Shown one piece after another: positions 13,444 to 64,000 of a DNA stretch of 64,000 nt. The DNA is from Bacilli bacterium (lineage in GTDB: Bacteria; Bacillota_I; Bacilli_A; RFN20; CAG-826), in contig JAKSUL010000004.1 of the NCBI GenBank assembly GCA_024409055.1, positions 4,010 through 68,009 of the forward strand, in the 5' to 3' direction. Below the pieces are notes generated by a model, which saw only the letters and a program-made list of their open reading frames with translations, was not told the DNA's origin and searched no databases. A program made the position numbers and the translations under genes. Numbering within the stretch: the first letter of the stretch is position 1; every line of letters starts with the position of its first letter.

Positions 13444-13488
13444 TACTTTCTTCTAGCAAACTCTTATTCTTTATACGAGGTATAAACC

Positions 13489-16654: not shown

Positions 16655-16665
16655 TCGATTTGATT

Positions 16666-17754: not shown

Positions 17755-18440
17755 TGAAAAACAAATATTTGCAGTGCGCCTTAGTCCTCTCCTCAATCTG
17801 CGTCGTCTCGGCTGGCGCGATTGGTGCTTTGAATTATGTGGCCGAGGTTTATAAAGCCGAACATCAAACCGATGAAGCTCCGGCGACAATAACGGCCTTG
17901 GACAAAGACGCTCTTTTCCAAAAAGTTAAAGACTTCGTTCCGGTTAAAACTCTTGGTGTCACCATCAACGAGGTTTACAAGATGACCAAAGGAAATGCGT
18001 TCCTTGGCTATGCTTATGACGTTGATGGAGGAAGACCGGTCGGCAACAACCTTCTTTTCACCATTTCATTTACCGGTGCCATCACTCCGGAAACTAAAGG
18101 CAGCGTGAAACCGACCGCCATACATGTTGTGTCTGGCGGCGACGCTGGCTACACCGAAATCGTTCAGACGTATGGTGATATGGTCGTTAATGGCGAGGCC
18201 AATTTGGATGAGAACGTCAAGATTGCTCTTGGCTCAACCTCCAAATCTTCTACCGCCTTGCAGAAGGCCATCAAAATAGTTAGAGACGAATATTGCGATC
18301 GCATGAATGGCGGTCCAGCCAAAGAGGGGGCCTATATGCCTACCTTGGAAGATGAATGCAACGATTATTCGCTTCCTGTTTTTTCTAGCGATGCCGTCAC
18401 TTTCGATATGAGGACTGGCTTTGTCAGTTATCTTGGATAA
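17754..18440 (+). CDS. rnfG: Rnf complex subunit G (FMN-binding domain), divergent flavinylation motif
   Basis: N-terminal TM anchor and FMN_bind-like core, in the position between rnfD and rnfE. The expected (S/T)GAT(I/V)S motif reads LGSTSKSS. Confidence 0.8.
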   Translation: MKNKYLQCALVLSSICVVSAGAIGALNYVAEVYKAEHQTDEAPATITALDKDALFQKVKDFVPVKTLGVTINEVYKMTKGNAFLGYAYDVDGGRPVGNNLLFTISFTGAITPETKGSVKPTAIHVVSGGDAGYTEIVQTYGDMVVNGEANLDENVKIALGSTSKSSTALQKAIKIVRDEYCDRMNGGPAKEGAYMPTLEDECNDYSLPVFSSDAVTFDMRTGFVSYLG

Positions 18441-18456
18441 GGAGGAATTGGAAATC

Positions 18457-19221
18457 ATGGAAAAATCAAAAAAACTTCCGATCTTCTTAGACCCGCTCCT
18501 TAAGGCGAACCCGTTGTTCGTCATGGTGCTTGGAACCTGCCCGGCTCTTGCGGTTACAACTTCGTTTGAAGCCGCGATTGGCATGGGTATGTTGTTCACT
18601 TTTGTCGTCTTATTCTCCAACATTATCATCTCGGCCCTTCGTAAGGTTATCCCAGACGAAATAAGGACCCCGTGCTTCATCGTTGTTATCGCAACGTTCG
18701 TTACCATCGTTAAGATTCTTTCTTCAACTTTCCTTCCCGAACTCTATAGCACTTTGGGCGTCTTCGTTTCGCTCCTTGTCGTTAACTGTATTGTTTTAGG
18801 ACGTGCCGAAGCGTTTGCCTCTCAAAACACAGTCGTCGATTCGATTCTCGATGGCTTGGGAAACGGCGTCGGCTACACTTGGGCAATCGGTGCCATCGCC
18901 CTCGTTAGAGAAGTGTTAGGAACCGGCACTTTAACCTTCGGAAAAACATTTACGTTTATTCCGGAAACCACTCTTCCGATCTTAGCTAAATTCCCCGGAT
19001 CGACATTCTCTGCCGCGATGCCAGTGTTTAGATCCAATGCTGGTGGCTTCTTGGTTTTGGGCATTGCCCTTGCCATAATCGCCGCTATCGAAAACGAGAA
19101 GAAGCGCAAAGAGAAAGAAAAAGAAAAAGCCAAGGTGGCCGCTGCGAAGGCTGCCGCCGCTAAAGCCGCTGCCGCCAAAGCCATGGCTGCAAGCGAAGCC
19201 GCGGCTGAAGGAGGTAAATAA
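18457..19221 (+). CDS. rnfE: Rnf complex subunit E with Lys/Ala-rich C-terminal tail
   Basis: NqrD/RnfE pattern LLKANPLFVMVLGTCPALAVT and VNCIVLGRAEAFA. GGAGG RBS. The last 44 aa are low complexity (KKRKEKEKEKAKVAAAKAAAAKAAAAK...). Confidence 0.9.
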   Translation: MEKSKKLPIFLDPLLKANPLFVMVLGTCPALAVTTSFEAAIGMGMLFTFVVLFSNIIISALRKVIPDEIRTPCFIVVIATFVTIVKILSSTFLPELYSTLGVFVSLLVVNCIVLGRAEAFASQNTVVDSILDGLGNGVGYTWAIGAIALVREVLGTGTLTFGKTFTFIPETTLPILAKFPGSTFSAAMPVFRSNAGGFLVLGIALAIIAAIENEKKRKEKEKEKAKVAAAKAAAAKAAAAKAMAASEAAAEGGK

Positions 19222-19223
19222 TT

Positions 19224-19826
19224 ATGTCTTACATCATATCGTTTATCCTCGCCATCGTTTCCTACATGGTCATCGACAACGTCATTTTGTCGAGATACTT
19301 CGGAATCTGTTCCTTCATCGGTGTTTCCAACAAAATCAAATCGGCGGTTTCCATGGGCATTGCCGTTGCCTTCGTCACCATTTTGGCGGCCCTCGTTTGC
19401 TGGCCGATATACACCTTCATCTTGGTTCCGGCCAAGATGGAATACATGGAGACAATTGTTTTCATCCTCGTCATTGCCTCTTTGGTTCAGATCGTCGGAT
19501 ACTTCATCAAAAAGAAATCCCCGACCTTATATAGAAGCCTCGGCATCTACCTCCCGCTTATCACGACCAACTGCGCGGTCTTGGGCGTCGTCGAAAGCAA
19601 CATGGCCTTCGACTTTGGGCGTTCAATGGCTAACGCGATTGGTACGTCTTTAGGCTTCATCCTCGTCATCTTCCTCTTCGCTTGCATTAGGGGACGCCTT
19701 GAATCTTCTAATACCCCGAAAGCCTTCAAAGGAGTTCCGATCGCTCTTATAGTCGCCGGCATCATGGCCATTGTCTTCATGGGCTTAAGCGGACTTATTG
19801 ATCTCGGAAGCTGGGGGGTCATCTGA
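19224..19826 (+). CDS. rnfA: Rnf complex subunit A
   Basis: NqrE/RnfA pattern LGICSF-like FGICSFIGVS and ITTNCAVLGV. 200 aa. Confidence 0.9.
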   Translation: MSYIISFILAIVSYMVIDNVILSRYFGICSFIGVSNKIKSAVSMGIAVAFVTILAALVCWPIYTFILVPAKMEYMETIVFILVIASLVQIVGYFIKKKSPTLYRSLGIYLPLITTNCAVLGVVESNMAFDFGRSMANAIGTSLGFILVIFLFACIRGRLESSNTPKAFKGVPIALIVAGIMAIVFMGLSGLIDLGSWGVI

Positions 19827-20062
19827 TGCCCCGAGAGGCATATATAGCCATTGCGATTGCTATAGTGGTCGCTCTTGTAGCCATCTTCGTTATCTCGTTT
19901 GTGGTTTACGTTAAAACGCCGGCCCCAAAGGGATGCGAGAAAAAAAGAGGACCTAATTGCGAAAATTGCGAACAAGCGAGCTGCCGTTTCTATTCTTACG
20001 CTGAGGAGCGTGAAGAAGCGAAAAAGAAAGCCGCCGAAACAAATAGAAAGGACCAACAATAA
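19826..20062 (+). CDS. small Cys-rich membrane protein embedded in the rnf operon
   Basis: One TM helix (IAIAIAIVVALVAIFVISFVVYV), then CEKKRGPNCENCEQASC (C-x8-C-x2-C-x4-C) and a charged tail. The start overlaps the rnfA stop by 1 nt, and the stop overlaps the rnfB ATG by 1 nt. Confidence 0.55.
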   Translation: MPREAYIAIAIAIVVALVAIFVISFVVYVKTPAPKGCEKKRGPNCENCEQASCRFYSYAEEREEAKKKAAETNRKDQQ

Positions 20063-20388
20063 TGGACGCTATGAACATCTTATGGGCCGTTCTCCTTATG
20101 GTGGGGCTCGGCATAGTATTCGCCTTACTCTTAGTTTTGTTTTCCAAGATTTTCTACGTCGAAGAAGATAAGAGAATCGACGCTGTTGAAAAGATGCTCC
20201 CCAATTACAATTGTGGCGCTTGCGGAAAAGCTGGGTGCCGCGATTTGGCGGAAGCAATCGTTAATGGCGAAGTGAAAAAAGTCTCGACTTGCAAAGCCGG
20301 AAAGAAAGACAAGAACTATGACCCAATCATCGCTTACCTATCTTCTACGCCAGGTCCGGACGGAAAGACGATAAATATCGACTTATAA
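20062..20388 (+). CDS. rnfB: minimal RnfB-like protein (TM anchor plus N-terminal Fe-S domain only)
   Basis: N-terminal TM helix and the CGACGKAGCRDLAEAI...C putative Fe-S domain typical of the RnfB N-terminus. Only 108 aa, with no ferredoxin-type CxxCxxCxxxCP motifs. Confidence 0.7.
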   Translation: MDAMNILWAVLLMVGLGIVFALLLVLFSKIFYVEEDKRIDAVEKMLPNYNCGACGKAGCRDLAEAIVNGEVKKVSTCKAGKKDKNYDPIIAYLSSTPGPDGKTINIDL

Positions 20389-20393
20389 GAATT

Positions 20394-20419
20394 AGGGCAC
20401 ATATGTGCCCTTTCTTTTC
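20394..20419 (+). terminator. rho-independent terminator after rnfB
   Basis: Perfect palindrome AGGGCACAT/ATGTGCCCT (20394-20411), followed by TTTCTTTTCC. Confidence 0.6.
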
Positions 20420-20455
20420 CTTGTTGACGACTTTGACCGTTCGTATGATAAGAAT

Positions 20456-21478
20456 ATGAAACTCAAGAAGACCTTAATCATCTTGTTACCTCTAATACTC
20501 TCGAGCTGTGGGAATGAAGAGGTTAAATATTATCAAGGTTTTGATTATGGAATTTTTCATTCTTTCGTCTCTTGGACATATGGGGCGAAAGGAGAAGATT
20601 TCAGCAATGAGATAACTTCTTATTTGGAACGTCTTGATGATTTGTCCGACCCTTATTATCCAATGGCGGGCGAAGCGAATTTATTCTCATTAAATGAATC
20701 TAGTGATTGGGTTGCAGTGGACCCCGTGCTTTATGATTTGCTTAAAACCGCGACTGATTTAAAAGAAAAAACTGAAGGTTACTTCGACCCTTATATCGGT
20801 AAGTTAACAAAGCTTTGGAAGAATACTCTTTTTGGAGAAGAGGAAGACATCTTTCCGACCCAAGAAGAGATAGACGAGGCCGCTACAAAAGTTCCGGAGT
20901 TACTAGAAGAAGCGAATTCTTTTAGCCTTTCATTTGATGAAGAGAATAAAAAAGTAAAACGAAACGGAACAGCCCACATTGATTTAGGCGGCTTGGTAAA
21001 GGGATATGCCGTTGAACAAATTGAAAAGATCATGAGCGCTCATGGCTCAACTATTTATAACATCAACGGGGGACAGAGCTCCGTTGGCTTAGGAAATACC
21101 AAATCCGGCAAACCGTTTACCGTATCGGTGATGTATAGCAAAGTCGAAGGGGAAAACACCTTTAAGTTTAAGGAAAAAGACACATCTGGTTCTGGTGTAT
21201 ACGAACAACAATATAGGCTTAACGGAAAGATATATAACCACATCGTTAATCCGAAGACGGGGATGCCTTTATCAGACTATTCTATGGCGTTTTTGGTGGG
21301 GGATGATTCCTCCGTTATCGACGCTTTCGCGACCGCGTGTATGCTGGCTGGCCCAGATAAGGCGAATGAGTGGTCTAAGAAATACGACTTTTACTATTCT
21401 TTATATAAAGACAAAGACGGTTACACGGATTTCGTTTCCGAATCTAGCGAATTAACCGCAATGAGAGCAAATGGCTGA
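20456..21478 (+). CDS. apbE: FAD:protein FMN transferase (ApbE family) lipoprotein
   Basis: Lipobox LPLILSSC-GNE. ApbE-like core (DPYIGKL, HIDLGGLVKGYAV, NHIVNPKTG, DAFATA). The 20405 extension in the track would run through the rnfB terminator. Confidence 0.85.
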   Translation: MKLKKTLIILLPLILSSCGNEEVKYYQGFDYGIFHSFVSWTYGAKGEDFSNEITSYLERLDDLSDPYYPMAGEANLFSLNESSDWVAVDPVLYDLLKTATDLKEKTEGYFDPYIGKLTKLWKNTLFGEEEDIFPTQEEIDEAATKVPELLEEANSFSLSFDEENKKVKRNGTAHIDLGGLVKGYAVEQIEKIMSAHGSTIYNINGGQSSVGLGNTKSGKPFTVSVMYSKVEGENTFKFKEKDTSGSGVYEQQYRLNGKIYNHIVNPKTGMPLSDYSMAFLVGDDSSVIDAFATACMLAGPDKANEWSKKYDFYYSLYKDKDGYTDFVSESSELTAMRANG

Positions 21479-21923
21479 CGTAGAGAAGAAGGAAAAAACC
21501 AAGAAATTCTTCCTGAGGCATATTTGGGATTTTGTTTTGCTCGTGGCTTTATCGTTAGGCACCGCCTCGGTTTTCATTGCTAGATCAATAAACGAGCAAA
21601 GAAAAGAAGAGGATGCCTTAGTGGCCACGGTTTATAAGAACAACCAAAAAATGGAGATAAAAGACGAGCACGGAAAATCAGTCAATCCGTTTGTTCTATC
21701 GACTATTAATGACGAAAAGCACTTCACGATAGAAGGCAGCAAAACCGATTTGGTTATTGCCGTCAAACATAATTCCATCTGCGTTTATAGTTCAAACTGT
21801 CCTGGGCAAGAATGTGTCCATGAGGGTTGGGTTTCCCATCCGAATCATCCGATCATCTGCGCCTACAACGAAATATTTATCGAAATAATCTCCCATAGTT
21901 GGGAAGAGATCATAGTTGGGTGA
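21471..21923 (+). CDS. NusG-domain-II-like (DUF1312-type) membrane-anchored protein
   Basis: N-terminal TM helix, a beta-rich body, and a CPGQECVHEGW motif. Overlaps the apbE stop by 8 nt. Family call from recollection. Confidence 0.5.
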   Translation: MADVEKKEKTKKFFLRHIWDFVLLVALSLGTASVFIARSINEQRKEEDALVATVYKNNQKMEIKDEHGKSVNPFVLSTINDEKHFTIEGSKTDLVIAVKHNSICVYSSNCPGQECVHEGWVSHPNHPIICAYNEIFIEIISHSWEEIIVG

Positions 21924-21927
21924 GTTT

Positions 21928-22476
21928 ATGGACACGAAAGCGCGTATTAAAAAACTCACGATGGTCGCCATTTTGCTAGCGATGGCGTTGGTTTTAAGTA
22001 TTGTCGAAAGCTTCATTCCATTTGGAATACCAGGAGTCAAATTGGGGCTAGCCAATCTCATTATCCTGTTATCTATTTATTACTTTGGATTCTGGATTCC
22101 TCTTGCCATCGACATCCTTAGAGTATTCATTGCCTCGATTGTGACGGGGACCTTCCTCGGAATGGGCTTTGTTATGTCCATATCTGGGGCTATTGCGAGC
22201 TTTTTATTGATGTACGTCTTCGTTAGATGGATCAAATGCTTCACTAGCGTCGGAGCCTCGATAATTGGGGCATACGTGCATGCGCTTGCCCAGATTCTTA
22301 TTGGCGTCCTTTACATGAATTCATGGGGAATTTTCTATTATTTCCCCGTTATGGCGTTAGTTGCTTTGATAACTGGCACGGTCAACGGAATCATCGTAGA
22401 AGTGCTTCTAAACAATTCTTATTTGAATAAAGTCGTGGCTTCGACGAAAAAACAGGCAGAAACTTCCTCGAATTAA
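21928..22476 (+). CDS. Gx transporter family protein (heptaprenyl-diphosphate-synthase-component-I-like membrane protein)
   Basis: LTMVAILLAMALVLSIVESFIPFGIPGVKLGLANLIILL is typical of this family. Five to six predicted TM segments. Confidence 0.65.
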   Translation: MDTKARIKKLTMVAILLAMALVLSIVESFIPFGIPGVKLGLANLIILLSIYYFGFWIPLAIDILRVFIASIVTGTFLGMGFVMSISGAIASFLLMYVFVRWIKCFTSVGASIIGAYVHALAQILIGVLYMNSWGIFYYFPVMALVALITGTVNGIIVEVLLNNSYLNKVVASTKKQAETSSN

Positions 22477-26532: not shown

Positions 26533-27963
26533 ATGAAAAAATTATTAGTCTTAGCCGCCTCTGCCGGACTAGTCTTCTCCGGCGCTGCCGCAGTTACGGC
26601 CAATGTCTTGAACACGCCAGTTGTCGAGACCAAAGCTGAAGCCGCTGGAACTTCTCAAATCATTACCGAAGAGGTCGATGTTACTGGGAAGACAAAATTA
26701 AGAGCTTCCGAAGGATCTTTCATTAAAGTCGCCAATCCGAAAACTTCCGGTCTTGGACTTTACATGGAATTTAAGGTCGCTAATCCGGAAAATACGCGTC
26801 GCCAAGTCATCCGTTTACAAAAGAACGGCGTTGATGCCAGCGGAAACATTTACTTATTAGATGTTTCTGATGCTGGCGGTGTCGCTATGTCGAGCTACGG
26901 AGCTGCTGTTCTCGACAGGACGCCTGGAAGGCGTGATGTCGTTAGCCTCGCCGACGGCTGGATGAAATATGAAGTTATGTTTGCCGATGCCGGCATAAAC
27001 GAAGGTGTTGATTACATCGATGGTATCAACTTAAGCGCCTGGGGCGATGCCTCCAACATCGTCGCTGTTCGTAATATTAAGATCACCGATCAAACGACAT
27101 ATCTCGGCATGACTCCTTGCACATACGAAGATCGCGGTGGCGACGGCCAATACCTCAAAGGGTATGGCGTGAATCGTCAAATGCCCGCGGTTGCTAACTG
27201 GAAAACTTCCGGAAAAGGCGTTTCCTTTGAGTTTAAGCCGGCGGAAGGCAGAGATTTCGAAACCTTGATTCAATTCAAGGAACAGCCGAATAGCTGGGCG
27301 ACCGTCTCTAGTGGAAACATTTATATGTATCGCCCTGGAAATACTGGTACTGCCACCTGCGGTAAAACAATCACTTTAGCTGATGGCTGGTATCGCTACG
27401 AAGCGATGTTCGCCGATGTTTCGTGTGTCGATGGAAAAGAAACATCCACGGTTTCGATTCTCTATTTCGGACAATGGGCAAATGACGTTAAATACGGATG
27501 CCGCCCAACCATCAGAAACGTTAAGTTAATCTCCTTCTATTCTTCCGCTGCTGAAACCGAGGTTGGAGATTACGCAACCAACGTCATGAATAACACTGCT
27601 GCGGTTTGTGTCGCCGACGGATCCACCGATCAAGAGGCTCTTACCGAAACTGTTGCGGCCCTAAAGACGAGATACAACACCCTCGCCCCGCAATCCAAGA
27701 TTCTTACGGTCTATCCGGAAAATATTGTTGGAGCTGATCAAAAGACCATAGTCGAGAGAGCCAACGCTAGACTCGGCTACATCTTCGCCAAATATCCGAG
27801 CATCGCGAACTACACTCCGGTCCCGGTCACCGCTGCTTACGGTACTTCCTTCCTCTTCAATGGAAACAGCGCTTCCGAGTACTACGTCGTCGCTGCTGTC
27901 GGCGGAGTCGCCTTGCTTGCCGCTGGTGGACTCATCTTCTCCAGGAAGAAAAAACACAACTAA
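26533..27963 (+). CDS. secreted, C-terminally membrane-anchored surface protein with two copies of an uncharacterised ~150-aa module
   Basis: Signal peptide. Motifs WKTSGKGVSFEFKP and DGW(M/Y)(K/R)YE(V/A)MFAD are each duplicated. The C-terminal TM plus SRKKKHN lacks the GCGG motif. Paralogous to 44832..46733. Confidence 0.6.
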   Translation: MKKLLVLAASAGLVFSGAAAVTANVLNTPVVETKAEAAGTSQIITEEVDVTGKTKLRASEGSFIKVANPKTSGLGLYMEFKVANPENTRRQVIRLQKNGVDASGNIYLLDVSDAGGVAMSSYGAAVLDRTPGRRDVVSLADGWMKYEVMFADAGINEGVDYIDGINLSAWGDASNIVAVRNIKITDQTTYLGMTPCTYEDRGGDGQYLKGYGVNRQMPAVANWKTSGKGVSFEFKPAEGRDFETLIQFKEQPNSWATVSSGNIYMYRPGNTGTATCGKTITLADGWYRYEAMFADVSCVDGKETSTVSILYFGQWANDVKYGCRPTIRNVKLISFYSSAAETEVGDYATNVMNNTAAVCVADGSTDQEALTETVAALKTRYNTLAPQSKILTVYPENIVGADQKTIVERANARLGYIFAKYPSIANYTPVPVTAAYGTSFLFNGNSASEYYVVAAVGGVALLAAGGLIFSRKKKHN

Positions 27964-43465: not shown

Positions 43466-44818
43466 ATGAAGAAAAACCCCTTTCTTATCGTTTCGTCCGT
43501 CGTTAGCCTTCTTTTGGTTGGCTGCGGTGGCGAAACAAAGGGCAAATGCATTGATGGCGGCGACCATGCGTATGTTCACCATGAAGCGGTGACGTACGAA
43601 GAGAAAAACGGCACCGCTGAATACTATTCATGTTCGAAGTGCGAGCATCTTTTTGATGTTAGCTATAAAGAAGTCGACAAAGTGCCGGTCGCTCCTCCGA
43701 ATAGAAAGATAATTCTTCCCTATAAAATGGAGGGAGAAAGACAGGAGACCATAGATAACACAGTCATTGGTTATTTATCTTGTCGCAACGAAGAGGAAGC
43801 CGCTGGATACCTATATACAAATAGGGGAAGAACGGAATGCTCAACCAAGTCTGTCATGATTTCATGGAGAAATAGCGGGTCAAGCGGATCGTATAAAGTT
43901 CAGCTTTCTAAAGATTCGTCGTTTTCGAAAATCGATTTAGAAAGAGCGACCACGTCTACCTCTATTTCCTTGTCGAATTTAGAACCATCCACCTATTACT
44001 ACAAAGTGGTGGACACTAAAGGAAATGAATCGTTGGTGGATTATTTCACGATGAATCCGCTAAGAACCATCAAATCCACAAATGGTGGCGTCGTGAATAT
44101 GCGAGACCTTGGCGGTTGGGAAACGACGACAGGGGATAAGATTAGGTATGGAAAACTCTATAGGTCGGCCCTTCCTTCTACGGCCGACGTCCCTCTCTTT
44201 AATGAATTAGGGATAAAGACGGAAATTGACCTCCGTATTAAAGGCGGTTCCGCAGATCAAATCGGAGACTTTAATGGAATTAGCCCGAATATCAATTACG
44301 TTATAGCTCTTGGGGAGGGTGAACGTTATTGGCCTCAATACGACATGATTTTGGAGGACCAATACAAATCGTATTCAAAAGGGTATTTCGACAAGATATT
44401 CACCTTGATGTCCGACGAAGCCAATTATCCGATTAACTTCCATTGCAAAAGCGGGGCTGATAGAACCGGAACGCTTGCCTACCTCATAAACGGGCTTTGT
44501 GGCGTTTCTTATGAAAACCTTACGAAAGATTTCGAATTGACCTCGTTTTATAAATCTCCTCGTTGGAGGAGCGATATCCAGGGAGACGGGGCCACATATT
44601 GGTTCACTGATACTGGAATGATGGCGACTGGCGACAATGTCCATTGGGGCAAGTTCCATAAAGAAATTATGGAAAAATACGGAGACTCATCTAAACTAGT
44701 CTCAAAGGCGATCCTCAATTATTTGACCTCATATTGCGAGGTTGATGAGATGAAGATCAAAAAATCATTGTCTATTCTCCTTGAAGGAGAGGCTTACTTG
44801 GATTTATTTGCCAAGTAG
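43466..44818 (+). CDS. lipoprotein with Fn3-like domain and C-terminal Cys-based (CX5R) phosphatase domain
   Basis: Lipobox SLLLVGC-GGE. Fn3-like segment (SYKVQLSKDSSFS...YYYKV). P-loop FHCKSGADRTGT at 44438-44473, typical of tyrosine/dual-specificity-type (Y_phosphatase3-like) phosphatases. Confidence 0.7.
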   Translation: MKKNPFLIVSSVVSLLLVGCGGETKGKCIDGGDHAYVHHEAVTYEEKNGTAEYYSCSKCEHLFDVSYKEVDKVPVAPPNRKIILPYKMEGERQETIDNTVIGYLSCRNEEEAAGYLYTNRGRTECSTKSVMISWRNSGSSGSYKVQLSKDSSFSKIDLERATTSTSISLSNLEPSTYYYKVVDTKGNESLVDYFTMNPLRTIKSTNGGVVNMRDLGGWETTTGDKIRYGKLYRSALPSTADVPLFNELGIKTEIDLRIKGGSADQIGDFNGISPNINYVIALGEGERYWPQYDMILEDQYKSYSKGYFDKIFTLMSDEANYPINFHCKSGADRTGTLAYLINGLCGVSYENLTKDFELTSFYKSPRWRSDIQGDGATYWFTDTGMMATGDNVHWGKFHKEIMEKYGDSSKLVSKAILNYLTSYCEVDEMKIKKSLSILLEGEAYLDLFAK

Positions 44819-44831: not shown

Positions 44832-46733
44832 ATGAAAAAGAAAACCTTAATTTGCTCTATTTTGTCTTTAGCTGCGATTGGTGCGATGGGAATCGGGGCC
44901 AACGTTGCCACGACTCCTTGGACCCCATCTACCGCGGTTAAGGCTGACGATGGATTCAAAGACATGACCGAAAAAGGATTCTGGGCCGCTAGCGATGGTG
45001 ACTTCGTCCAAGTCGAAAATTGGTTCAATTCCGGAAAAGGATTCTCCTTTGAATTTAAACTTGCCGATAACGTCATGAAGGAAATGAGTGTGAAGCTCTA
45101 TTCTGGATCCACCGAAATCACTTCTAATTTCTATGGCTTCCAGCCGAATGAAGATGGCACCGATTTGTCTACCAACGCCGCCAAAATTGCTTCATGGAGA
45201 GGACGTGCGTTCCTTTTGAATGCGGAAGAGAAAGTCTACCGCTACGAATTGATGTTCTCCGACCTCGTCGATAAAAAGAAAGCGGGATTCGAAGACGCTA
45301 CAGTCGATGGAATCACATTCCTTTGGAACTGGGGAGCCCCTTACCAAAACAAATTCTTAGTCAGAGACTTGAAGGTTATTAATGACTATAGTGACGAAGC
45401 CTTCTACCACGAGGTCGATACTTCTGGCCCAGATCAATACCTCAAATATGCCGAGCATACCTTTATTCAGATAGAAAACTGGAAAACATCAGGGAAGGGA
45501 TTCGCTCTTCATTTCAAACCGCGTGAAAACGGGCAGGTTGTCGTTATGCTTAATGGAAATTCTGCAGATGGCACTATTCGAGGAAGGGATGTCAGCAAAT
45601 ACAAATACATCTATAGAAAAGGCGGAAACCCGGATGTTGGCAAGGTGTTCGATATTGGCGACGGATGGTATCGCTATGAAGTTATGTTCTCCGAGCTCGA
45701 AAGCGTTAATGTCGATGGCGTTGACGGCGGAACTTTTACCGTCACTCAGCTCCACATCGCTTGGATGAGTTCTGGATATGGAATCACAACCTCTGGCAGA
45801 ACCGCCATTATCGACGGCTATTCCTATAACTACTCATTCAATATCGATGGCGTTGTCACCGAAAAAGGCTATACCGCGAAAGCCCTTGAGGAGCCGACCG
45901 CTCCATCAAAAGAGGGAAACCACTTCTGCGGTTGGTATACCGAGCCGGAATTCACAAATAAATATGAGTTCGGTAATCCATTAACTTCTGATGTTTCCTT
46001 GTATGCCAAATTTGAACCTCACGCATACACGGAGCATTGCCATGACGAAAACGAACACTGGGACGCCTGCGAATGCGGCGAAAAAACCAATGTTGGTGTT
46101 CACGTCTATGATCAAGAAGCCGCGAACGAAGAATTCTATGCTGCTCCGGCCACTTGCATGCACGGCAAGGAGTATTACAAATCTTGCGTTTGCGGAGCCA
46201 AAGGAAGTGAAACCTTCATGGTTGGTGAAAAGGATCCAACCGTTCACGTTCCAGGTGCTTCGACCAAAGAAAATATGACCGCTCCAGGGTGTGAAACTGA
46301 TGGCGGATACGACAATGTCGTCCGTTGCGAAGAATGTCACGAAATTGTCTCCTCTTCCCACGTTGTCATCCCGGCCAGCGGGCATGATTACGTCGAGTCC
46401 TCTTGGTCTTTGAGCGAAGATAAGACAACTGGCACTCTCCATCTTGTCTGCGGCAATGATAGCAGCCACACCAAAGATGTTTCAGCCACCGTCACTGTCG
46501 TGGTTGTCGAACCGACCACTGAGAAAGATGGAAAGGCCACGTATACCTTATCTGCTAATTTCGAAGGCAAATCTTATAGTCACGTCATCGAAGAAATCCT
46601 TCCCAAGAAAGACCCAGAACCAGAGCCGAAGAAAGACGGAGGATGTGGTGGAGCCATTGTTGGTTGTAGCGCAGCCGCTATCGTCGGATTGGTCGGACTC
46701 GGTGTTGTCGCCATTAAACGCAAAGAAAAATAA
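44832..46733 (+). CDS. surface protein: two copies of the 26533-type module, a Listeria-Bacteroides repeat, a Cys/His-rich region and a GCGG C-terminal anchor
   Basis: Signal peptide. Motifs WFNSGKGFSFEFKL / WKTSGKGFALHFKP and DGWYRYEVMFSEL. GWYTEPEFTNKYEFGNPLTSDVSLYAKF matches the Flg_new/List-Bact repeat. The tail is DGGCGGAIVGCSAAAIVGLVGLGVVAIKRKEK. Confidence 0.65.
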   Translation: MKKKTLICSILSLAAIGAMGIGANVATTPWTPSTAVKADDGFKDMTEKGFWAASDGDFVQVENWFNSGKGFSFEFKLADNVMKEMSVKLYSGSTEITSNFYGFQPNEDGTDLSTNAAKIASWRGRAFLLNAEEKVYRYELMFSDLVDKKKAGFEDATVDGITFLWNWGAPYQNKFLVRDLKVINDYSDEAFYHEVDTSGPDQYLKYAEHTFIQIENWKTSGKGFALHFKPRENGQVVVMLNGNSADGTIRGRDVSKYKYIYRKGGNPDVGKVFDIGDGWYRYEVMFSELESVNVDGVDGGTFTVTQLHIAWMSSGYGITTSGRTAIIDGYSYNYSFNIDGVVTEKGYTAKALEEPTAPSKEGNHFCGWYTEPEFTNKYEFGNPLTSDVSLYAKFEPHAYTEHCHDENEHWDACECGEKTNVGVHVYDQEAANEEFYAAPATCMHGKEYYKSCVCGAKGSETFMVGEKDPTVHVPGASTKENMTAPGCETDGGYDNVVRCEECHEIVSSSHVVIPASGHDYVESSWSLSEDKTTGTLHLVCGNDSSHTKDVSATVTVVVVEPTTEKDGKATYTLSANFEGKSYSHVIEEILPKKDPEPEPKKDGGCGGAIVGCSAAAIVGLVGLGVVAIKRKEK

Positions 46734-57263: not shown

Positions 57264-58454
57264 ATGGACATCAAAAAGTATTTATCTCTCTACGAGACGG
57301 AATTGGACGAATATTGCGCCCCTTTCTGGCTCAAGTATGCGGTCGATGAAAAAGACGGCGGCATTCTCAACTGCGTTGACGAAAAAGGCGAGGTTTATTC
57401 TCTCGACAAAAGCGTGTGGATGCAGGGCAGATGCGGATATATGTATTCGCACCTTTACAACACCCATAAAAAGGATCCGGAGTATTTAAAAATAGCCAAG
57501 TCGTGCATCGATTTTTTGGATCAGCATTGCTTTGACGCGGATGGCAGGATGTATTTCACCGTCACCCACGATGGACTTCCTCTTAGAAAAAGAAGGTATT
57601 ACTTCTCGGAGACCTTCTACATCATGGCTAACATCGAATATTACGGCGCGACCGGAGATGTCGAAAAGCTTAAGAATGCTAAGAAGGTCTTTGATCTTGT
57701 TTATGCCATTTACAAAGACGGCGCCAATGATCCGTTCCAGATTTGGCCAAAGACCTATCCAACCACCCGCGCTTTGAAGGCGATGGGCCCGAGCATGATT
57801 CTTCTCAACGTCACATACATCATGAGGGAATTTGATAAGGAAAACGAAGAAAGATATAACGCGATCATCGATGAATGCATCGCAGAAATCAAACTTCACT
57901 ATATCCCTGAATATCATGCGATGCTCGAATCCATCACAGTCGATAACAAAGCCTTCTTAGATAGTGCTCCGGAGAGAATTATCAATCCTGGACACGATTT
58001 GGAATGCTCCTTCTTCTTAGCCCAAGAAGCTCAGTATCGCAACGACAAGGAACTTCTCGCCTTTGCTGAGTTAGTCTTCAAGGACGCCATCAAGAACGGA
58101 TGGGATGAAACCTATGGCGGAATCTTGTATTTCAAAGACTGCCTTGGAAAGCCAGTTGAGGCTTATGAACACGATATGAAACTCTGGTGGCCACACAATG
58201 AAGGCATCAACGCATCCCTTCTTTTGTTCCAATTGACCGGAGATAAGTTCTATGCCGATTGGTTCGAGAAGATTACCGAATACGCCTTCTCTCATTTCTC
58301 CGATCATAAATATGGGGAATGGTATGGGTACCTTAGAAGAGACGGAAAACCGACCGAGCCTCCGTGCAAAGGCCATACATACAAAGGGCCATTCCACGTT
58401 ATGAGATGTCTTAATAACGTCATCGGAATGCTCAAAGAAATGTCATCTAAATAA
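57264..58454 (+). CDS. N-acylglucosamine 2-epimerase (AGE) family epimerase/isomerase
   Basis: (alpha/alpha)6 AGE pattern: FWLKYAVDEKDGGILNCVD, KSVWMQGR, HDLECSFFL, LWWPHNE, GEWYGYL. Confidence 0.85.
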   Translation: MDIKKYLSLYETELDEYCAPFWLKYAVDEKDGGILNCVDEKGEVYSLDKSVWMQGRCGYMYSHLYNTHKKDPEYLKIAKSCIDFLDQHCFDADGRMYFTVTHDGLPLRKRRYYFSETFYIMANIEYYGATGDVEKLKNAKKVFDLVYAIYKDGANDPFQIWPKTYPTTRALKAMGPSMILLNVTYIMREFDKENEERYNAIIDECIAEIKLHYIPEYHAMLESITVDNKAFLDSAPERIINPGHDLECSFFLAQEAQYRNDKELLAFAELVFKDAIKNGWDETYGGILYFKDCLGKPVEAYEHDMKLWWPHNEGINASLLLFQLTGDKFYADWFEKITEYAFSHFSDHKYGEWYGYLRRDGKPTEPPCKGHTYKGPFHVMRCLNNVIGMLKEMSSK

Positions 58455-58460
58455 CGAAAC

Positions 58461-58493
58461 AGCCAATTGGGTTCTTCCCAGTTGGCTTTTCTT
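58461..58493 (+). terminator. rho-independent terminator after the AGE gene
   Basis: 11-bp stem AGCCAATTGGG / CCCAGTTGGCT with a 5-nt loop, followed by TTTTCTT. Confidence 0.55.
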
Positions 58494-58526
58494 GTGCAAA
58501 ATTAGAGCAAGCAAAGAGGAAATACT

Positions 58527-58868
58527 ATGGCAAAAGTAAGACGCTATATGGGCGGCTATGTTCTTCAATTTGAGGGTGACCGAATTCGTGAATATATGGG
58601 CGGATACCTTTATCAGATTGAAGGAGATCGCGTTCGTCGTTATATGGGGGGTTACGTCTACCAAATAGAAGGTAACCGAGTTAGAGACTACATGGGCGGT
58701 TACATCTTGGAGTTCGATGGAAAGAGGCTGCGCCGCTACATGGGCGGCTATGTGGCTGAAGTCGAGGGAGACAAAATCCGCCAGTATATGGGCGACTATG
58801 TTTACCAAATCGAGGGATTTTTAACAAACAAAGAAATGATGGTGTTGCTCACGCTTCTGTTTGCGTAA
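58527..58868 (+). CDS. small protein built from six tandem 16-aa repeats (consensus RRYMGGYVYQIEGDRV) with a hydrophobic C-terminal tail
   Basis: GAGGAAA RBS. The repeats are conserved at the amino-acid level while synonymous codons differ between units. The tail is KEMMVLLTLLFA. Confidence 0.6.
   Translation: MAKVRRYMGGYVLQFEGDRIREYMGGYLYQIEGDRVRRYMGGYVYQIEGNRVRDYMGGYILEFDGKRLRRYMGGYVAEVEGDKIRQYMGDYVYQIEGFLTNKEMMVLLTLLFA
58539..58817 (+). repeat. 48-bp-period coding tandem repeat (5 full units plus 1 partial)
   Basis: Units start at 58539, 58587, 58635, 58683, 58731 and 58779, each containing TA(T/C)ATGGG(N)G(G/A)(N)TA. Confidence 0.8.
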
Positions 58869-58904: not shown

Positions 58905-59879
58905 ATGAAAAAATACATTGGAACAATCATAACCGTCATCGTCGTTTTGGCAGCGACAGTGCTTGGGTTCGTCTTCTGCCCGCCGAATTTGGACAGCCTT
59001 CAACTCGAGACCATGTTTATCTTGGCCTGCATAACCGGTGGATCGATTTTATATTGCTTTATCGTTGGTGAAATAACTCTTAATAACTCTCAAATGGATA
59101 AGCTTTGGAGCATCCTTCCGATTGCTTATATTTGGGTTATCGCGATAAAGGGAGGCCTATCCCCGCGTCTTCTCATCATGGCGCTTTTGGTGACCTTGTG
59201 GGGTATCCGTCTCACTGCTAATTTTGCAAGAAAAGGCGCCTATTCTATTAAGTTTTGGACGGGTGAAGAAGACTACCGTTGGGTTGTTTTAAGGAAAAAC
59301 AAACTTCTTCAGCCGAGGTGGAAATGGGCCATCTTTGATTTGCTATTTATCTCTATTTATCAAAACGTTCTAGTTTTGGCGATATGTTTGCCTGCCGTTG
59401 CCGTCATGTCTTCAACCGCTTCATTTGGAGTTTGGGACTATGTGGCTTCCATTGCCATGTTTGGCTTTATTCTTTTGGAGACTATCGCCGACGAGCAACA
59501 GATGGCGTTCTACAAGAAAAGGGGCGAATATTACGCCCAAGGAAAGAAGCTTGAAGAAATGCCGCTCCCGTATAGCAGAGGTTTCAATACATCGGGATTA
59601 TGGGGACATTCCCGCCACCCGAACTATTTTTCGGAACAAGGCACTTGGATTTCTCTCTATATCTTCACAATCGGAGCTGGAGTCATCGTTTACGGTGTCT
59701 TCAACTGGTCGATGGTTGGCTGTTTGTTCTTGGTCCTTCTTTTCCTAGGAAGCTCGGCTTTTGGAGAAGGGGTCTCGTCTTCAAAGTATCCTGAATACAA
59801 ACTTTACCAAGCGAAAGTCTCCAAATACGTCCCTTGGCTCAAATATAATCCAACCAAGGAATCCGCTGAGACGAAATAA
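58905..59879 (+). CDS. DUF1295 / steroid-5-alpha-reductase-like membrane protein
   Basis: Polytopic. The motif GLWGHSRHPNYFSEQGTWISLY is typical of DUF1295/ICMT-like families. ATG at 58905 with an AAGGGA RBS. Confidence 0.7.
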   Translation: MKKYIGTIITVIVVLAATVLGFVFCPPNLDSLQLETMFILACITGGSILYCFIVGEITLNNSQMDKLWSILPIAYIWVIAIKGGLSPRLLIMALLVTLWGIRLTANFARKGAYSIKFWTGEEDYRWVVLRKNKLLQPRWKWAIFDLLFISIYQNVLVLAICLPAVAVMSSTASFGVWDYVASIAMFGFILLETIADEQQMAFYKKRGEYYAQGKKLEEMPLPYSRGFNTSGLWGHSRHPNYFSEQGTWISLYIFTIGAGVIVYGVFNWSMVGCLFLVLLFLGSSAFGEGVSSSKYPEYKLYQAKVSKYVPWLKYNPTKESAETK

Positions 59880-60029: not shown

Positions 60030-61568
60030 ATGAAAAAGAGGCACCTTGTTTTTAGCGTTCTTATCTTGGCTCTTTTTGCTTGTGCTTCGGTGTCATCGGC
60101 GTTCGCAAATTTAAACAACGAGCCGACCGTCGTTAACGCCGCCGACTATTCATCCTATTGGAATGGAATCGATACTTCCGGAAAGACTGTAGGCAACACA
60201 TTCAGAAAATCTCTCCAAGACATCATGAAGTCTAAGGGAACAAAGACAGGTTCCAATTCTTATAAAGGTCTCAACACGATTTTGGCAAAGAGCGATGCCG
60301 ATCCGAAAGATTCATCGAAGGTCATTCCTTTTTACCATGGGCCCAATGAATCGGTCACCGCTTCGTGGAACACCACCATCAATAAAGAACACACTTGGCC
60401 GAATAGCCGTGGTGCCGGTGAGAACTCCGGATATGCCGGAACCGATCCGCAAGTCATTCGTCCAACGTTGATAAAAGATAACAGCAGCCGTGGCAACTCT
60501 ATGTTCGCTGAATCAGGGGCTTACGACCCGGCAAGTTTGGGCTATGAACCCGCTAGAGGAGAGGCAGCCCGCATCATCCTTTATGCCGCCACGATGTATT
60601 ACAACAAATCGACATCAGGGGCTGGAGGAACTTCGAAAGGGAGCAAACCTCTTGAACTAACGAATAACGTAAGCGATTCGGCAAGTAACTGCACCATGGG
60701 TAGGTTGAGGGATCTTCTTAAATGGAACCTCCAATACCCAGTGACGGATGCCGAGGTCAGGAGGAACAACTATTTGACCTCCATCAACTATGCTAGAAAC
60801 CCGTTTATCGATAATCCTGAATGGGCAAATTTCATTTGGGACGATAACGGTATTCGCCAATCGCCTTACGACCCGACATCTTCTTATTCGCCCGTTTCCA
60901 TTTCTTCGTCTTCAGAAAGTCAAATTCCAAGCGGCGCCAAGTATCAAATGATTCAGGACACCAGGGAACTCGTTATCGGAAAGCATTACGCGATCGCCGG
61001 AGAAAATAGCACCTCGTATTTCGCCATGAAGAACGAGATAAAAGCCACATATTACATTGATCAAGTTCAAGTTAACGTCACCGACGGAATTCTTACGAGT
61101 GCCGATGGAATGTGCGATTTCGTTTTAGAAGAAGGCACTACCCCTGGGACTTATGCATTTCACGATGCGAGTGCAGGTTATTTAAACGGCGTCATGAGCG
61201 GGACTCACTACAATGTCGGGTACCAAACTAACGGATCCGCCAAAAACACCGATTGGACCATTTCTTCGTATAAGGATGGCTTCAGTTTGATGTCTGGGAA
61301 CGGAGTCTATGCATCTCATTACGCTGAAAAAGCCGACTTTACTGGAAGCCAATATGCCGCGGAACTTTATTTATTCGAATTGATCGATGGCCCGACCCCA
61401 ACTTCTTCAAGCTCGCAGGCCACCAGTGAACATCCTCCCGTTTCTCATTCTGATTCTAGTGGAGCAGGAGGGACTGGCTGCGGTGGTTCTATCGTTGGAA
61501 CGTTGGCGGTTTCGACCATCGGCCTTTTCGGCCTAGGTTTGGCGTTTGCCATCAAAAAGAGGAAATGA
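60030..61568 (+). CDS. extracellular endonuclease I family nuclease with extra C-terminal domain and GCGG C-terminal anchor
   Basis: Signal peptide. Endonuclease_1 motifs NKEHTWPNSRG, DPQVIRPTLIKDNSSRGNSMF, AARIILYAATMY and RNPFIDNPEWA. The tail is GGTGCGGSIVGTLAVSTIGLFGLGLAFAIKKRK. Confidence 0.85.
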   Translation: MKKRHLVFSVLILALFACASVSSAFANLNNEPTVVNAADYSSYWNGIDTSGKTVGNTFRKSLQDIMKSKGTKTGSNSYKGLNTILAKSDADPKDSSKVIPFYHGPNESVTASWNTTINKEHTWPNSRGAGENSGYAGTDPQVIRPTLIKDNSSRGNSMFAESGAYDPASLGYEPARGEAARIILYAATMYYNKSTSGAGGTSKGSKPLELTNNVSDSASNCTMGRLRDLLKWNLQYPVTDAEVRRNNYLTSINYARNPFIDNPEWANFIWDDNGIRQSPYDPTSSYSPVSISSSSESQIPSGAKYQMIQDTRELVIGKHYAIAGENSTSYFAMKNEIKATYYIDQVQVNVTDGILTSADGMCDFVLEEGTTPGTYAFHDASAGYLNGVMSGTHYNVGYQTNGSAKNTDWTISSYKDGFSLMSGNGVYASHYAEKADFTGSQYAAELYLFELIDGPTPTSSSSQATSEHPPVSHSDSSGAGGTGCGGSIVGTLAVSTIGLFGLGLAFAIKKRK

Positions 61569-61571: not shown

Positions 61572-62690
61572 ATGAAATTGAAGGCCGGTAAAAAAACAAT
61601 TATTGCTACCGCCCTTCTTTCGCTTTGCTCCATTGCCGTTTCTTTCTCGCTCTTTGGAAAAACCGTTTCCTCAGTAGATGCTAGAGGGGGAGATTACTCA
61701 GTTCCTCTTGACGGGTATTACGACGAAATAACGGCCACGTCTGGCAGGGAATTAACTGGTCAGGTGCATGACTTGATCGTGAAAACCCACCAAAATTACA
61801 CGACGTATGACGACAACGGGAAAAACGGTCTTCAGAAGCAGGCCGATTACGATCCCGAGAATCCGAGCAACATTATCGAATGGTATTCCGGCATGCCTAT
61901 GCCAAATGCGTGGAATCCAGTCACCGGTGGATACAATCGCGAGCATGTATGGTGCCAATCTCTTTCGAATGGATTATGGGGTGAAAAAGGAGGGGGTGCG
62001 GATATGCACCATCTTCGCCCTGTTGAGGTTTCTTTAAATACCGCTAGAAACAATAGCCCCTACGGCATTGTCCCAAATAGGGAGAACTATAAAAAATACC
62101 CAAAAGACTTAAACAAAAACTACATCACCGATTGGTGCGGCGGTTATAAAACCAATGACGTTTTCGAGCCTATCGATTCCAAGAAAGGCGATGTCGCCCG
62201 CGTCGTAATGTATACGTACCTGCACTATTCTACGTATGCGAACGTTGGCGGGACCACCAATGGGTCCGGCGGAATAGATTATTTCGGCACCCTTCCGATT
62301 ACGAATGTTATTTCGGCCGCCAACGAGCAGGACGCTTGGAAACTATTGATCGATTGGAACAACATGGATCCGGTCGACATCCTCGAAATAAATAGAAACG
62401 AAGCTGTTGCAAAATTTCAGGGGAATAGAAATCCTTTTATCGATCATCCTGAATATGCAGCCGCTATGTGGGGAGATCAACCGCTTCCGCCACCGACTAG
62501 TGAGCCGTCTTCTTCGACAATTGAGTCGTCGCCGATTGAATCATCTTTAGCTCCTACCTCTCAGTCTGGAGGAGGGAACGGATGCGGTGGGGCCATCGAA
62601 TCCACCCTATCTCTACTGGCGATTGGACTTGGAGGGTGTGCGGTCCTCACGACAACTTGGCTAATCAAACGCGCTAAAGAAAGGAAATAA
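61572..62690 (+). CDS. extracellular endonuclease I family nuclease with GCGG C-terminal anchor
   Basis: Signal peptide. Motifs NREHVWCQSLS, DMHHLRPVEVSLNTARNNSPYG, VARVVMYTYLHY and RNPFIDHPEYA. The tail is GGNGCGGAIESTLSLLAIGLGGCAVLTTTWLIKRAKERK. Confidence 0.85.
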   Translation: MKLKAGKKTIIATALLSLCSIAVSFSLFGKTVSSVDARGGDYSVPLDGYYDEITATSGRELTGQVHDLIVKTHQNYTTYDDNGKNGLQKQADYDPENPSNIIEWYSGMPMPNAWNPVTGGYNREHVWCQSLSNGLWGEKGGGADMHHLRPVEVSLNTARNNSPYGIVPNRENYKKYPKDLNKNYITDWCGGYKTNDVFEPIDSKKGDVARVVMYTYLHYSTYANVGGTTNGSGGIDYFGTLPITNVISAANEQDAWKLLIDWNNMDPVDILEINRNEAVAKFQGNRNPFIDHPEYAAAMWGDQPLPPPTSEPSSSTIESSPIESSLAPTSQSGGGNGCGGAIESTLSLLAIGLGGCAVLTTTWLIKRAKERK

Positions 62691-62694: not shown

Positions 62695-64000
62695 ATGAAA
62701 AAGAGAACAAAGATATTCGCCGCTCTTGCTGCATTGTGCCTTGCTTTTTCTAGCGGTGCCGTCGCTTCCTTCTTTGGGAGCGTCGTCGATGCGGTGGAAG
62801 CCGCTGTTGTAACTACTCCTGACGGTGCGGCCATCAATAGCGTTTGGAGCGGGCTAGATACAGGAAAATACGGAGCTCAGTTTGCGACTGAATTAAGAAA
62901 CAAAATGGCAAGCGTCAAAACAAAGAGCAGTTCCTACGATGACCTTAAAACCATCCTCTGTAGTTCCGATTTGGATCCGGCCGGTTCCGGAAAGATGCTT
63001 GGCTTCTACGATGCTACAAAACTCAATGCCGTTTGGGATAGCGCCGCTACGTGGAATAGAGAACACGTGTGGCCCGATTCTCGTGGCGTTGGCAAATCTG
63101 GACCTGGTTCAGATCCCCATATGATTCGTCCTGCCTCCGTAAAAATAAATTCGTCCCGTGGCAACTCTATGTACGGAGAATCCGGTAGCACCTATGATGC
63201 CGGGCAATATGTCGAATATTACCGTGGTATCGCCGCAAGGATCATTTTCTACACAGCGACATATTATGGAAAGGCTAGTGGTGGAGGATCTCTTTTCCTC
63301 ACCAACGAAACCAGCGTGGTCACAAACGCTATGGGAAGGATCAGCGATCTTCTCAAATGGAATGCTAAATACCCGGTTCAGCCATCCGAAATCGTGAGAA
63401 ACGAATACCTCTACGCTAACGGATATGGTCGCAATCCTTTTATCGATAATCCAGAATTCGCCTCATATATTTGGACTGTTGATTCGTCAAAAGGCGGTAA
63501 CAATTCAAATAACTACGTGAGAACTACGGCGTATACCGGAGACGAATATACGTATGAATCGGCTTCTTCCTCGTTCTCATATAGTGTCTCTCCCTCAACG
63601 TCGAAATCCACTTCGACTTCGAGCGGATCCACGTCTTCTCAAACTTCTATCAGTTCCGAAACCTCTGCCTCTTCCTCGACGTCAGGGAATGTGATTATCA
63701 CTCCCGATACTGTCAATATGCCTACCTCGTATCCGACCACTGATACTCAGTATTCTTTAGAAGGTTTGAACTTGACGTTAAATAACGTGGGCCGCTTCCT
63801 CTACAACAATGTTCCATACATTCAGATGAAGAAGAGCGGAAGTTATCTTTATAACAAGTCCGCCTTATCGGAAATCTCCCAGATAAAAATTACGTTAAAC
63901 AGCGGGACGATCCCGACTGTTACTTATGGTAATACCTCTTCTTTAGGGAATACCGCAACTCCGTCACAAAGTGGATCTGTCTATTCATTTAATTTAAATG
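62695..64000 (+). CDS. extracellular endonuclease I family nuclease, 5' partial (runs off the window end; absent from the supplied ORF track)
   Basis: I translated the frame from the ATG at 62695 by hand; it stays open to 64000. It begins MKKRTKIFAALAALCLAFSSGAVAS... and contains NREHVWPDSRG, DPHMIRPASVKINSSRGNSMY, AARIIFYTATYY and RNPFIDNPEFA, followed by a Ser/Thr-rich linker. Confidence 0.8.
   Translation, partial: MKKRTKIFAALAALCLAFSSGAVASFFGSVVDAVEAAVVTTPDGAAINSVWSGLDTGKYGAQFATELRNKMASVKTKSSSYDDLKTILCSSDLDPAGSGKMLGFYDATKLNAVWDSAATWNREHVWPDSRGVGKSGPGSDPHMIRPASVKINSSRGNSMYGESGSTYDAGQYVEYYRGIAARIIFYTATYYGKASGGGSLFLTNETSVVTNAMGRISDLLKWNAKYPVQPSEIVRNEYLYANGYGRNPFIDNPEFASYIWTVDSSKGGNNSNNYVRTTAYTGDEYTYESASSSFSYSVSPSTSKSTSTSSGSTSSQTSISSETSASSSTSGNVIITPDTVNMPTSYPTTDTQYSLEGLNLTLNNVGRFLYNNVPYIQMKKSGSYLYNKSALSEISQIKITLNSGTIPTVTYGNTSSLGNTATPSQSGSVYSFNLN

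Follow-up and report, generated by a model that had tools for sequence, protein, structure and literature searches.

A portable Gly-Cys tail at the C-terminus of unrelated surface proteins in uncultured Bacillota: a candidate cysteine-type sorting signal

The 64,000-nucleotide stretch of Bacilli bacterium DNA analyzed here (assembly GCA_024409055.1, contig JAKSUL010000004.1, positions 4,010 to 68,009; hereafter the window) encodes a 633-amino-acid secreted surface protein. The last ~45 residues of this protein form a tail that recurs at the ends of two endonuclease-I proteins encoded 15 kb downstream, and we propose that in all three it is a cysteine-type tripartite C-terminal sorting and anchoring signal, processed as described below. 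We give this reading a probability of about 0.5, although its parts differ in strength: the tail is very probably a selected, dedicated C-terminal signal, while its lipidation and cleavage in the manner proposed, argued from analogy, would fall slightly short of even odds. Judged from its sequence, the module is dedicated, selected and portable, lies at the extreme C-terminus, and is carried by several substrates encoded close together. We place it among the cysteine-type tripartite C-terminal sorting signals, as a variant that is widespread in Bacillota and so far uncatalogued.

Nucleotides 46638..46733 translate to GGCGGAIVGCSAAAIVGLVGLGVVAIKRKEK plus a stop codon and form the end of the 633-residue open reading frame (ORF). 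A preliminary description of this DNA had already seen that the protein closes with GCGG, a transmembrane helix and a basic cluster, and the translation agrees; the gene coordinates given there (44832..46733) also stand, but the length of 634 residues does not, the stop codon having been counted. Resolved into its parts, the C-terminus reads PKKDPEPEPKKDG-GCGGAI-VGCSAAAIVGLVGLGVVAI-KRKEK. At the other end, the protein starts MKKKTLICSILSLAAIGAMGIGANV, a Sec-type signal peptide. The N-terminal lipobox [LVI][ASTVI][GAS]C is absent from this protein and from the second nuclease; the N-terminus of the first holds a borderline lipobox (ALFAC). The longer tail ends of the two nucleases read ...GTGCGGSIVGTLAVSTIGLFGLGLAFAIKKRK and ...GNGCGGAIESTLSLLAIGLGGCAVLTTTWLIKRAKERK. 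BLASTP aligned residues 604-632 of the 633-residue protein with residues 483-512 of nuclease 1 (53% identity over 30 residues, E 8e-6) and found no other similarity between that protein and the nucleases, in keeping with the earlier claim that otherwise unrelated proteins share one tail. Among the nucleases, the first and the third, tandem copy are 43% identical and the second is 27-28% identical to each.

The window supplies its own control in a paralog of the 633-residue protein (30% identity across ~310 N-terminal residues; E 2e-27), with which it shares two repeats of ~150 residues. The paralog was reported to end in a plain transmembrane helix and SRKKKHN without GCGG, and it does; a hidden Markov model (HMM) of the tail returned no match to it even at E 10, and NCBIfam and Pfam gave only weak, generic transmembrane matches.

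Likeness among short tails of this kind might be a compositional accident of Gly-rich linkers beside transmembrane helices, or the tails might be recent copies of one another. Gly-rich stretches (SGAGGTG, SGGGNG, DGG) do lie upstream of the window tails, and short motifs can recur by chance. Against such an accident, GCGG was observed five times in the 19,692 translated residues of the window, where 0.14 occurrences are expected from their own amino-acid composition; this ~35-fold excess bears out, within the window, the suggestion that the motif is commoner than chance. Every occurrence lies at a membrane interface: three in the C-terminal tails and two in the lipoprotein lipoboxes LVGC|GG (genes at 13489 and 43466). 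Four proteins of the window have both a signal peptide and a C-terminal transmembrane segment, and the motif is present in three of them. As DNA, the three tails are only 55-61% identical, with synonymous differences within the motif codons, and are therefore not recent copies of one another; their likeness, read from those codons, is kept at the protein level and not through recent copying. With the C-terminal profile matches in the database described next and the silence of the tail HMM on the paralog, these results refute accident or recent copying as an explanation, and we regard it as vanishingly improbable.

A profile built from 12 tails and searched against 1.84 billion cluster representatives matched 177 proteins at E <= 0.001, ranging in length from 45 to 3023 amino acids. 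The Cys lay <=36 residues from the C-terminus in 151 of the 153 tails checked; P0134, another listed match, is a false positive that lacks the Cys. When 142-155 tails of unrelated proteins were aligned on the Cys (position 0), the consensus was a Pro/Glu-rich linker, KKGCG[GS][SV]I, ~20 hydrophobic residues and KKKED. The spacer at -14 to -4 is acidic and Pro-rich (Pro/Glu/Thr-rich in composition; 155 tails). Upstream of the Cys, K-3 is found in 61% of tails, position -2 is K or G, and G-1 is nearly invariant (99%); downstream follow G+1 (94%), G or S at +2, S or V at +3, and I+4 (90%). Further on, S+8 is conserved in 65% and either G or A stands at +18 in 92%; K or R occupies +24 to +27, frequently followed by ED, and the chain ends 24-35 residues past the Cys (median 28). 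A single Cys is present in 144 of 155 tails, and every member of the family has the hydrophobic block of ~20 residues. K-3, S+8 and G+18 are far more strongly conserved among the matches than in the 12-sequence seed, which marks them as features of the family itself and not artifacts of the query. Conservation of this order (90-99% at each of G-1, C0, G+1 and I+4), together with the fixed distance to the chain end, upholds the earlier view that the Cys motif is not simply a by-product of a transmembrane anchor.

An HMM made from 151 tails matched only the expected proteins in 263 kb of sequence (the window and the other loci). The pattern GCGG[SA]I[VG][AG][TAC][SL] gave confirmed loci in GTDB genomes (three) and metagenomes (five) and none in viral contigs. 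Given the tail alignment as query, a word-indexed homology search had hardly any sensitivity (190 candidates, one match). When a consensus tail was compared by tblastn with plasmids and phages there was no match, probably as a result of low-complexity masking.

The cargo to which the tail is joined is diverse. Pfam domains in 73 tail proteins included Flg_new (12), Endonuclease_1 (7), Big_3 (4) and CBM_X2 (4), along with GDSL lipase, GDPD, PA, FIVAR and others; database labels are either 'hypothetical' or derived from the cargo. Named hosts are an Erysipelotrichaceae metagenome-assembled genome (MAG), Bacilli MAGs, Candidatus Onthovivens, Candidatus Enteromonas, and Clostridia/Clostridiales MAGs. 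Among the 105 full-length members of the family, the N-terminus is lipoprotein-like in only three and an ordinary signal peptide in the others; lipoproteins make up about half of the secreted proteins in the tail loci examined. Tail proteins are clustered, with five within 22 kb of locus L016, four in L017, three in L018 and three in the window, and the clustered genes are typically interleaved with N-terminal lipoproteins in loci for the scavenging of sugars or nucleosides.

Nuclease homologs show the tail moving independently of the protein that carries it. Among the 120 best nuclease homologs, eight besides the query end in GCG[GSA]xIG...RRK tails, and the lineages in which the tail occurs number at least five. 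Both P0102 and P0103 have the Cys tail, whereas P0095, with a core 74-76% identical to theirs, has a transmembrane tail lacking Cys; the tail, as these alignments have it, is swapped as a unit among close nuclease homologs. That it is a portable module, as the preliminary description had it, is thus borne out by unrelated cargo both in the window and elsewhere. In the orthologs from L004 and L005 (71% identical overall), KGCGGSIVA is retained while the helix residues drift. The tail also recurs in homologs from other organisms: the sole close homolog of the 633-residue protein, P0002 (31% identity), ends in NGCGGSIVAAS...KKRKEDK, and the tail of P0009 is LGCGGSIGGAS...RKKED.

The tail has no model in Pfam-A, and when 31 tails were compared with NCBIfam release 20, no family reached its cutoff on the Cys motif. 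The best-scoring models that span the motif were those of MYXO-CTERM, TIGR03901.2 (16.9 bits; cutoff 20) and TIGR03382 (12.6-13.9 bits; cutoff 15.85), and C-termini of MYXO-CTERM-anchored families also matched the tails; the window's three tails matched neither model. What the preliminary description could not see is that the tail belongs to a widespread Bacillota family, as delimited by the profile, with MYXO-CTERM as its closest described relative. The generic motif of MYXO-CTERM is GCGC; the signal is cut by the myxosortase MrtX, an intramembrane protease of the CPBP/Rce1 type, and this cleavage depends on the Cys (PMC11980579; 10.1101/2023.06.07.544157). Cleavage also works in E. coli, which indicates a widely conserved lipidating enzyme such as Lgt, the enzyme its authors propose (PMC11980579). 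MYXO-CTERM has been described as restricted to genomes encoding a myxosortase (core domain NF040914).

The two signals share their architecture: a tripartite segment with Cys motif, transmembrane helix and basic cluster that closes Sec-exported proteins at their extreme C-terminus, with an invariant Cys following Gly just outside the helix (GCGC in MYXO-CTERM, GCG[GS] in the tail), borne by many unrelated cargo proteins and several times per genome. They differ in host, MYXO-CTERM being confined to Myxococcota and Bradymonadales whereas the tail is found in Erysipelotrichaceae, Bacilli, Candidatus Onthovivens and Clostridia/Clostridiales MAGs, Bacillota assumed to have neither an outer membrane nor a type II secretion step. 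They also differ at the cytoplasmic end, which is Arg-rich in MYXO-CTERM but Lys-rich with terminal ED in the tail, and in the additional conserved positions K-3, I+4, S+8 and G+18 and the predominantly single Cys of the tail; nor was a myxosortase found for it in the neighborhoods (+/-10 kb) read at 19 loci. The tail, as far as its residues indicate, is therefore most like MYXO-CTERM yet outside that family on both HMM score and lineage.

Four cysteine-type signals have been described, MYXO-, JDVT-, Synerg- and CGP-CTERM, from Myxococcota/Bradymonadales, Proteobacteria, Synergistota and Thermococcales, respectively, and none from Firmicutes; the last three are all predicted to be CPBP-processed (10.1101/2023.06.07.544157). 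Those three resemble the tail in having an invariant Cys in the motif with a transmembrane helix and basic cluster after it, but differ from it in lineage and in motifs of their own (a DP motif, an in-helix Pro and CGP), and their models score <= 11.6 bits on the tails. With the class as a whole the tail has in common a portable C-terminal domain, unrelated cargo, Sec signals, and several clustered tail proteins per locus. Literature searches on the motif strings, on C-terminal lipoboxes or lipidation, and on cysteine-type signals of Bacillota or Clostridia turned up no account of the tail.

The N-terminal lipobox recognized by Lgt and Lsp offers a second comparison. In both, Gly (or Ala) and Cys stand at the outer end of a membrane helix with a basic cytoplasmic end, and GCGG itself occurs in both contexts, as in the window lipoproteins with LVGC|GG. 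The polarity of the chain is opposite, however; K-K in the tail replaces the hydrophobic residues at -3 and -2, and position -1 is almost always G, where lipoboxes accept A, G or S. Read backwards (helix, I-S-G-G-C), the tail suggests a lipobox (helix, L-[VAS]-[AGS]-C, e.g. L-V-G-C). Tentatively, and at somewhat less than even odds, the tail may be a fifth cysteine-type C-terminal signal, Bacillota-wide and defining 'C-terminal lipoproteins': a mirror image of the lipobox possibly handled by Lgt, with the helix clipped by an as-yet-unrecognized dedicated intramembrane protease.

The proposed order of events is as follows. The protein would be exported by Sec through its N-terminal signal peptide until the C-terminal helix stops transfer. 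In the predicted geometry the K/R end is then cytoplasmic, and the Gly-Cys, 3-4 residues outside the helix, is at the outer face of the membrane. Next, by analogy with MYXO-CTERM, the Cys thiol would be lipidated by Lgt or an Lgt-like transferase. Finally, an intramembrane protease would cut distal to the Cys and remove the helix; the leading candidate would be a CPBP/Rce1-type 'myxosortase-like' enzyme. The enzyme or adhesin would then stand on a Pro/Glu-rich stalk, with a lipid at its C-terminus holding it to the cell surface.

Several points weigh against this mechanism. The window's own tails are weaker members of the family (33.6 bits for the 633-residue protein and 20.4 and 13.6 for the nucleases), without the KK before Gly-Cys, and no MYXO-CTERM model reaches its cutoff on the 31 tails. 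The hosts, being Bacillota, are assumed to be monoderm, with no outer membrane or type II secretion step; in that case a retained helix would anchor the proteins equally well, and cleavage is not obviously needed. Genes for a CPBP protease, rhomboid, sortase or exosortase were not found within 10 kb of the tail genes in the window and 18 other loci, and PF02517 (CPBP) specifically had no match in the +/-10 kb neighborhoods of these 19 loci. Lipidation, cleavage and the identity of the enzymes are all inferred.

Some of these same points speak for a permanent, uncleaved type-I transmembrane anchor in which the juxtamembrane motif KKGCGGSI has another role; it could be S-acylated to form a dual anchor, be recognized by a membrane partner or insertase, direct lateral sorting to a zone of membrane or wall, or pair helices. 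Helix and basic end already make a complete stop-transfer anchor, a monoderm host (if the assumption holds) presents no outer membrane to cross, no protease gene is linked to any of the 19 loci, and other nuclease homologs use plain transmembrane and basic ends. Yet ordinary transmembrane anchors do not keep a near-invariant G-C-G, an I+4, a fixed distance to the C-terminus and KKKED across unrelated proteins of two bacterial classes; such conservation is the hallmark of sorting signals recognized by an enzyme. The hosts are gut anaerobes, moreover, which would make a disulfide role for the single exposed Cys unlikely. We consider the uncleaved anchor unlikely on balance; it keeps this much standing because no enzyme is encoded within 10 kb in 19 loci and, if the hosts are monoderm, a retained helix would suffice.

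Alternatively, the tail could be the substrate of a different sorting enzyme: a 'rhombosortase-like' rhomboid that cuts within the Gly-rich motif, a sortase of unusual motif, or a transpeptidase of the exosortase/archaeosortase family. A single step would then attach wall polymer or lipid to the Cys or to the new C-terminus. The tripartite architecture is that of LPXTG, GlyGly-CTERM and PEP-CTERM. GlyGly-CTERM, the signal for rhombosortase, likewise carries Gly-Gly in a motif immediately ahead of the helix, closes with a basic segment and is borne by surface hydrolases; an invariant Cys is lacking, however, and the hosts are Gram-negative bacteria with type II secretion. No match to a GlyGly-CTERM or PEP-CTERM model covered the tail motif. 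The LPXTG signal (TIGR01167, PF00746) shares with the tail its phylum, tripartite layout and a similar transmembrane and K/R end, but has a pentapeptide where the tail has a conserved Cys; neither a PEP motif nor an LPXTG-like one is present, and an LPXTG-type pentapeptide was found upstream of the helix in 0 of 155 tails.

The transmembrane and basic part does resemble the hosts' sortase signals. On the tails of P0002, P0120, P0172 and P0251, TIGR01167 (LPXTG_anchor) reaches 16.4-19.0 bits against a cutoff of 15.9 bits; Rumino_NPXTG scores up to 19.1 bits on the Cys tails. Both match over transmembrane and basic positions only (9-34 of 34 in TIGR01167); the window's own tails do not match TIGR01167. 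Since the model passes through this part alone, Cys-tail proteins could be mislabeled as sortase substrates. None of these enzymes is encoded near any examined locus, and Cys as the sole invariant residue is the hallmark of the CPBP-processed class (10.1101/2023.06.07.544157). A different sorting enzyme is in our estimation quite improbable, about half as credible as the uncleaved anchor.

Two neighboring genes were considered as partners of the tail and set aside. A multi-pass membrane protein with DUF1295 (PF06966, E 4e-40) is encoded at 58905..59879 (+), directly upstream of the three tandem endonuclease-I genes. DUF1295 proteins are presumably distant kin of isoprenylcysteine carboxyl methyltransferases, a kinship that would suit a CAAX-like pathway; the gene lies beside tail genes in none of the 18 other loci. 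A membrane protein of the RDD family (PF06271) adjoins a tail gene at L003 4510..5667, L013 11706..12560 and L014 7824..8678, in two unrelated contexts. It was rejected as a processing candidate because other small membrane proteins replace it in the homologous operons of L009 and L010 and because it appears to be part of an ABC transporter; its link to the tail may be accidental.

The features of the window that bear on the tail are collected in Table 1.

Table 1. Tail-bearing proteins, parts of their tails and related genes in the window.
Feature	Position	Strand	Basis or remark
Tyrosine phosphatase family lipoprotein, lipobox LLVGC|GG	43466..44818	+	Translation; Pfam Y_phosphatase3, E 1e-26
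633-residue secreted surface protein gene	44832..46733	+	ORF and translation; identical protein already on record (predicted)
Pro/Glu/Lys-rich spacer PKKDPEPEPKKDG, residues 591-603	46602..46640	+	Read from sequence
Signature motif G604-C605-G606-G607-A608-I609	46641..46658	+	Matches family-conserved positions
Hydrophobic transmembrane stretch A608-I628	46653..46715	+	Kyte-Doolittle 17-residue mean 2.42
Basic, predicted cytoplasmic end KRKEK and stop	46716..46733	+	Read from sequence; family consensus [KR]K[KR]KED at +24 to +29
Paralog of the 633-residue protein, Cys-less transmembrane and SRKKKHN end	26533..27963	+	Internal control
Endonuclease-I protein 1, 512 residues	60030..61568	+	Pfam Endonuclease_1, E 3e-18
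Nuclease 1 Cys tail GCGGSIVG...AIKKRK	61476..61568	+	Tail HMM 20.4 bits
Endonuclease-I protein 2, 372 residues	61572..62690	+	Pfam Endonuclease_1, E 1e-33
Nuclease 2 Cys tail GCGGAIES...LIKRAKERK	62580..62690	+	Tail HMM 13.6 bits
Endonuclease-I gene 3, tandem, C-terminus beyond window end	62695..64000	+	Pfam Endonuclease_1, E 3e-22

In the 633-residue protein, residues 332-393 form a Flg_new (Listeria-Bacteroides) repeat (Pfam, E 7e-13), and a Cys/His-rich region precedes the tail. An AlphaFold2 model built from three sequences was unusable (mean predicted local distance difference test score 38.7). Only 14 nucleotides separate the gene from the end of the phosphatase-lipoprotein gene upstream, and because of this short gap the two are probably co-transcribed. 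Both proteins of the pair have His/Cys-rich segments of the form HxY..H...EYYxSCxCG, with a weak match to Pfam RYYR-CCHC (E 0.03).

A 113-residue ORF (58527..58868, +), flanked by a glycoside-hydrolase-like gene and the DUF1295 gene, consists of six 16-residue repeats of the form RRYMGGYVYQIEGDRV, with a DNA period of 48 nucleotides; a longer antisense ORF (58443..58808) hides it in a naive gene call. Elsewhere in the window, 15326..22476 holds an Rnf complex cluster and, after it, genes for an ApbE flavin transferase, a NusG_II-domain protein and a membrane protein like heptaprenyl-diphosphate-synthase component I; a NuoE/NuoF/[FeFe]-hydrogenase set (8618..12765) lies upstream. An Rfam scan of the window gave no match.

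Gene order at other loci hints at how tail proteins are used. In L009, L010, L013 and L014 (about 3500..19800 each), all from higher-GC MAGs (GC content 55-57% in L009 and L010), a tail-bearing nuclease lies within a conserved nucleoside-salvage operon. In order, the operon encodes DeoC, purine nucleoside phosphorylase, phosphopentomutase, cytidine deaminase and a 5'-nucleotidase lipoprotein, then pyrimidine nucleoside phosphorylase, thymidine kinase, the nuclease, an ABC transporter and an SNase lipoprotein. The place of the nuclease in this operon suggests scavenging of extracellular DNA at the cell surface. In L016 (2212..16208), a DUF4185 protein followed by a tail protein of ~350 residues occurs three times, the DUF4185 protein being a lipoprotein in two of the three pairs; in L017 (7714..22915), four tail proteins are interleaved with three lipoproteins of ~370 residues. 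These repeated pairings suggest surface complexes assembled from both types of anchor.

Surface display in Gram-positive bacteria is currently explained by sortase and LPXTG, N-terminal lipoproteins, plain transmembrane anchors, and non-covalent wall-binding domains. A conserved cysteine-type C-terminal signal on hundreds of protein clusters of gut Clostridia and Bacilli would be an additional route and, if our reading is true, the first signal of its type in bacteria presumed to lack an outer membrane. Annotation stands to gain, given that tail proteins are now 'hypothetical' and some tails pass the LPXTG-anchor model by their transmembrane part alone. The tail would also be a simpler setting for a question raised by MYXO-CTERM, that of the enzyme behind Cys lipidation and of whether Lgt accepts an inverted substrate; provided that the hosts are monoderm, as assumed, it would be free of the complications of an outer membrane and a type II secretion step. 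For the organisms themselves, the tail marks surface-exposed nucleases, adhesin-like repeat proteins and glycan-active enzymes of uncultured gut bacteria; if the proposal is correct, uncultured gut Firmicutes would display nucleases, glycan-binding proteins and hydrolases by means of a C-terminal lipid anchor.

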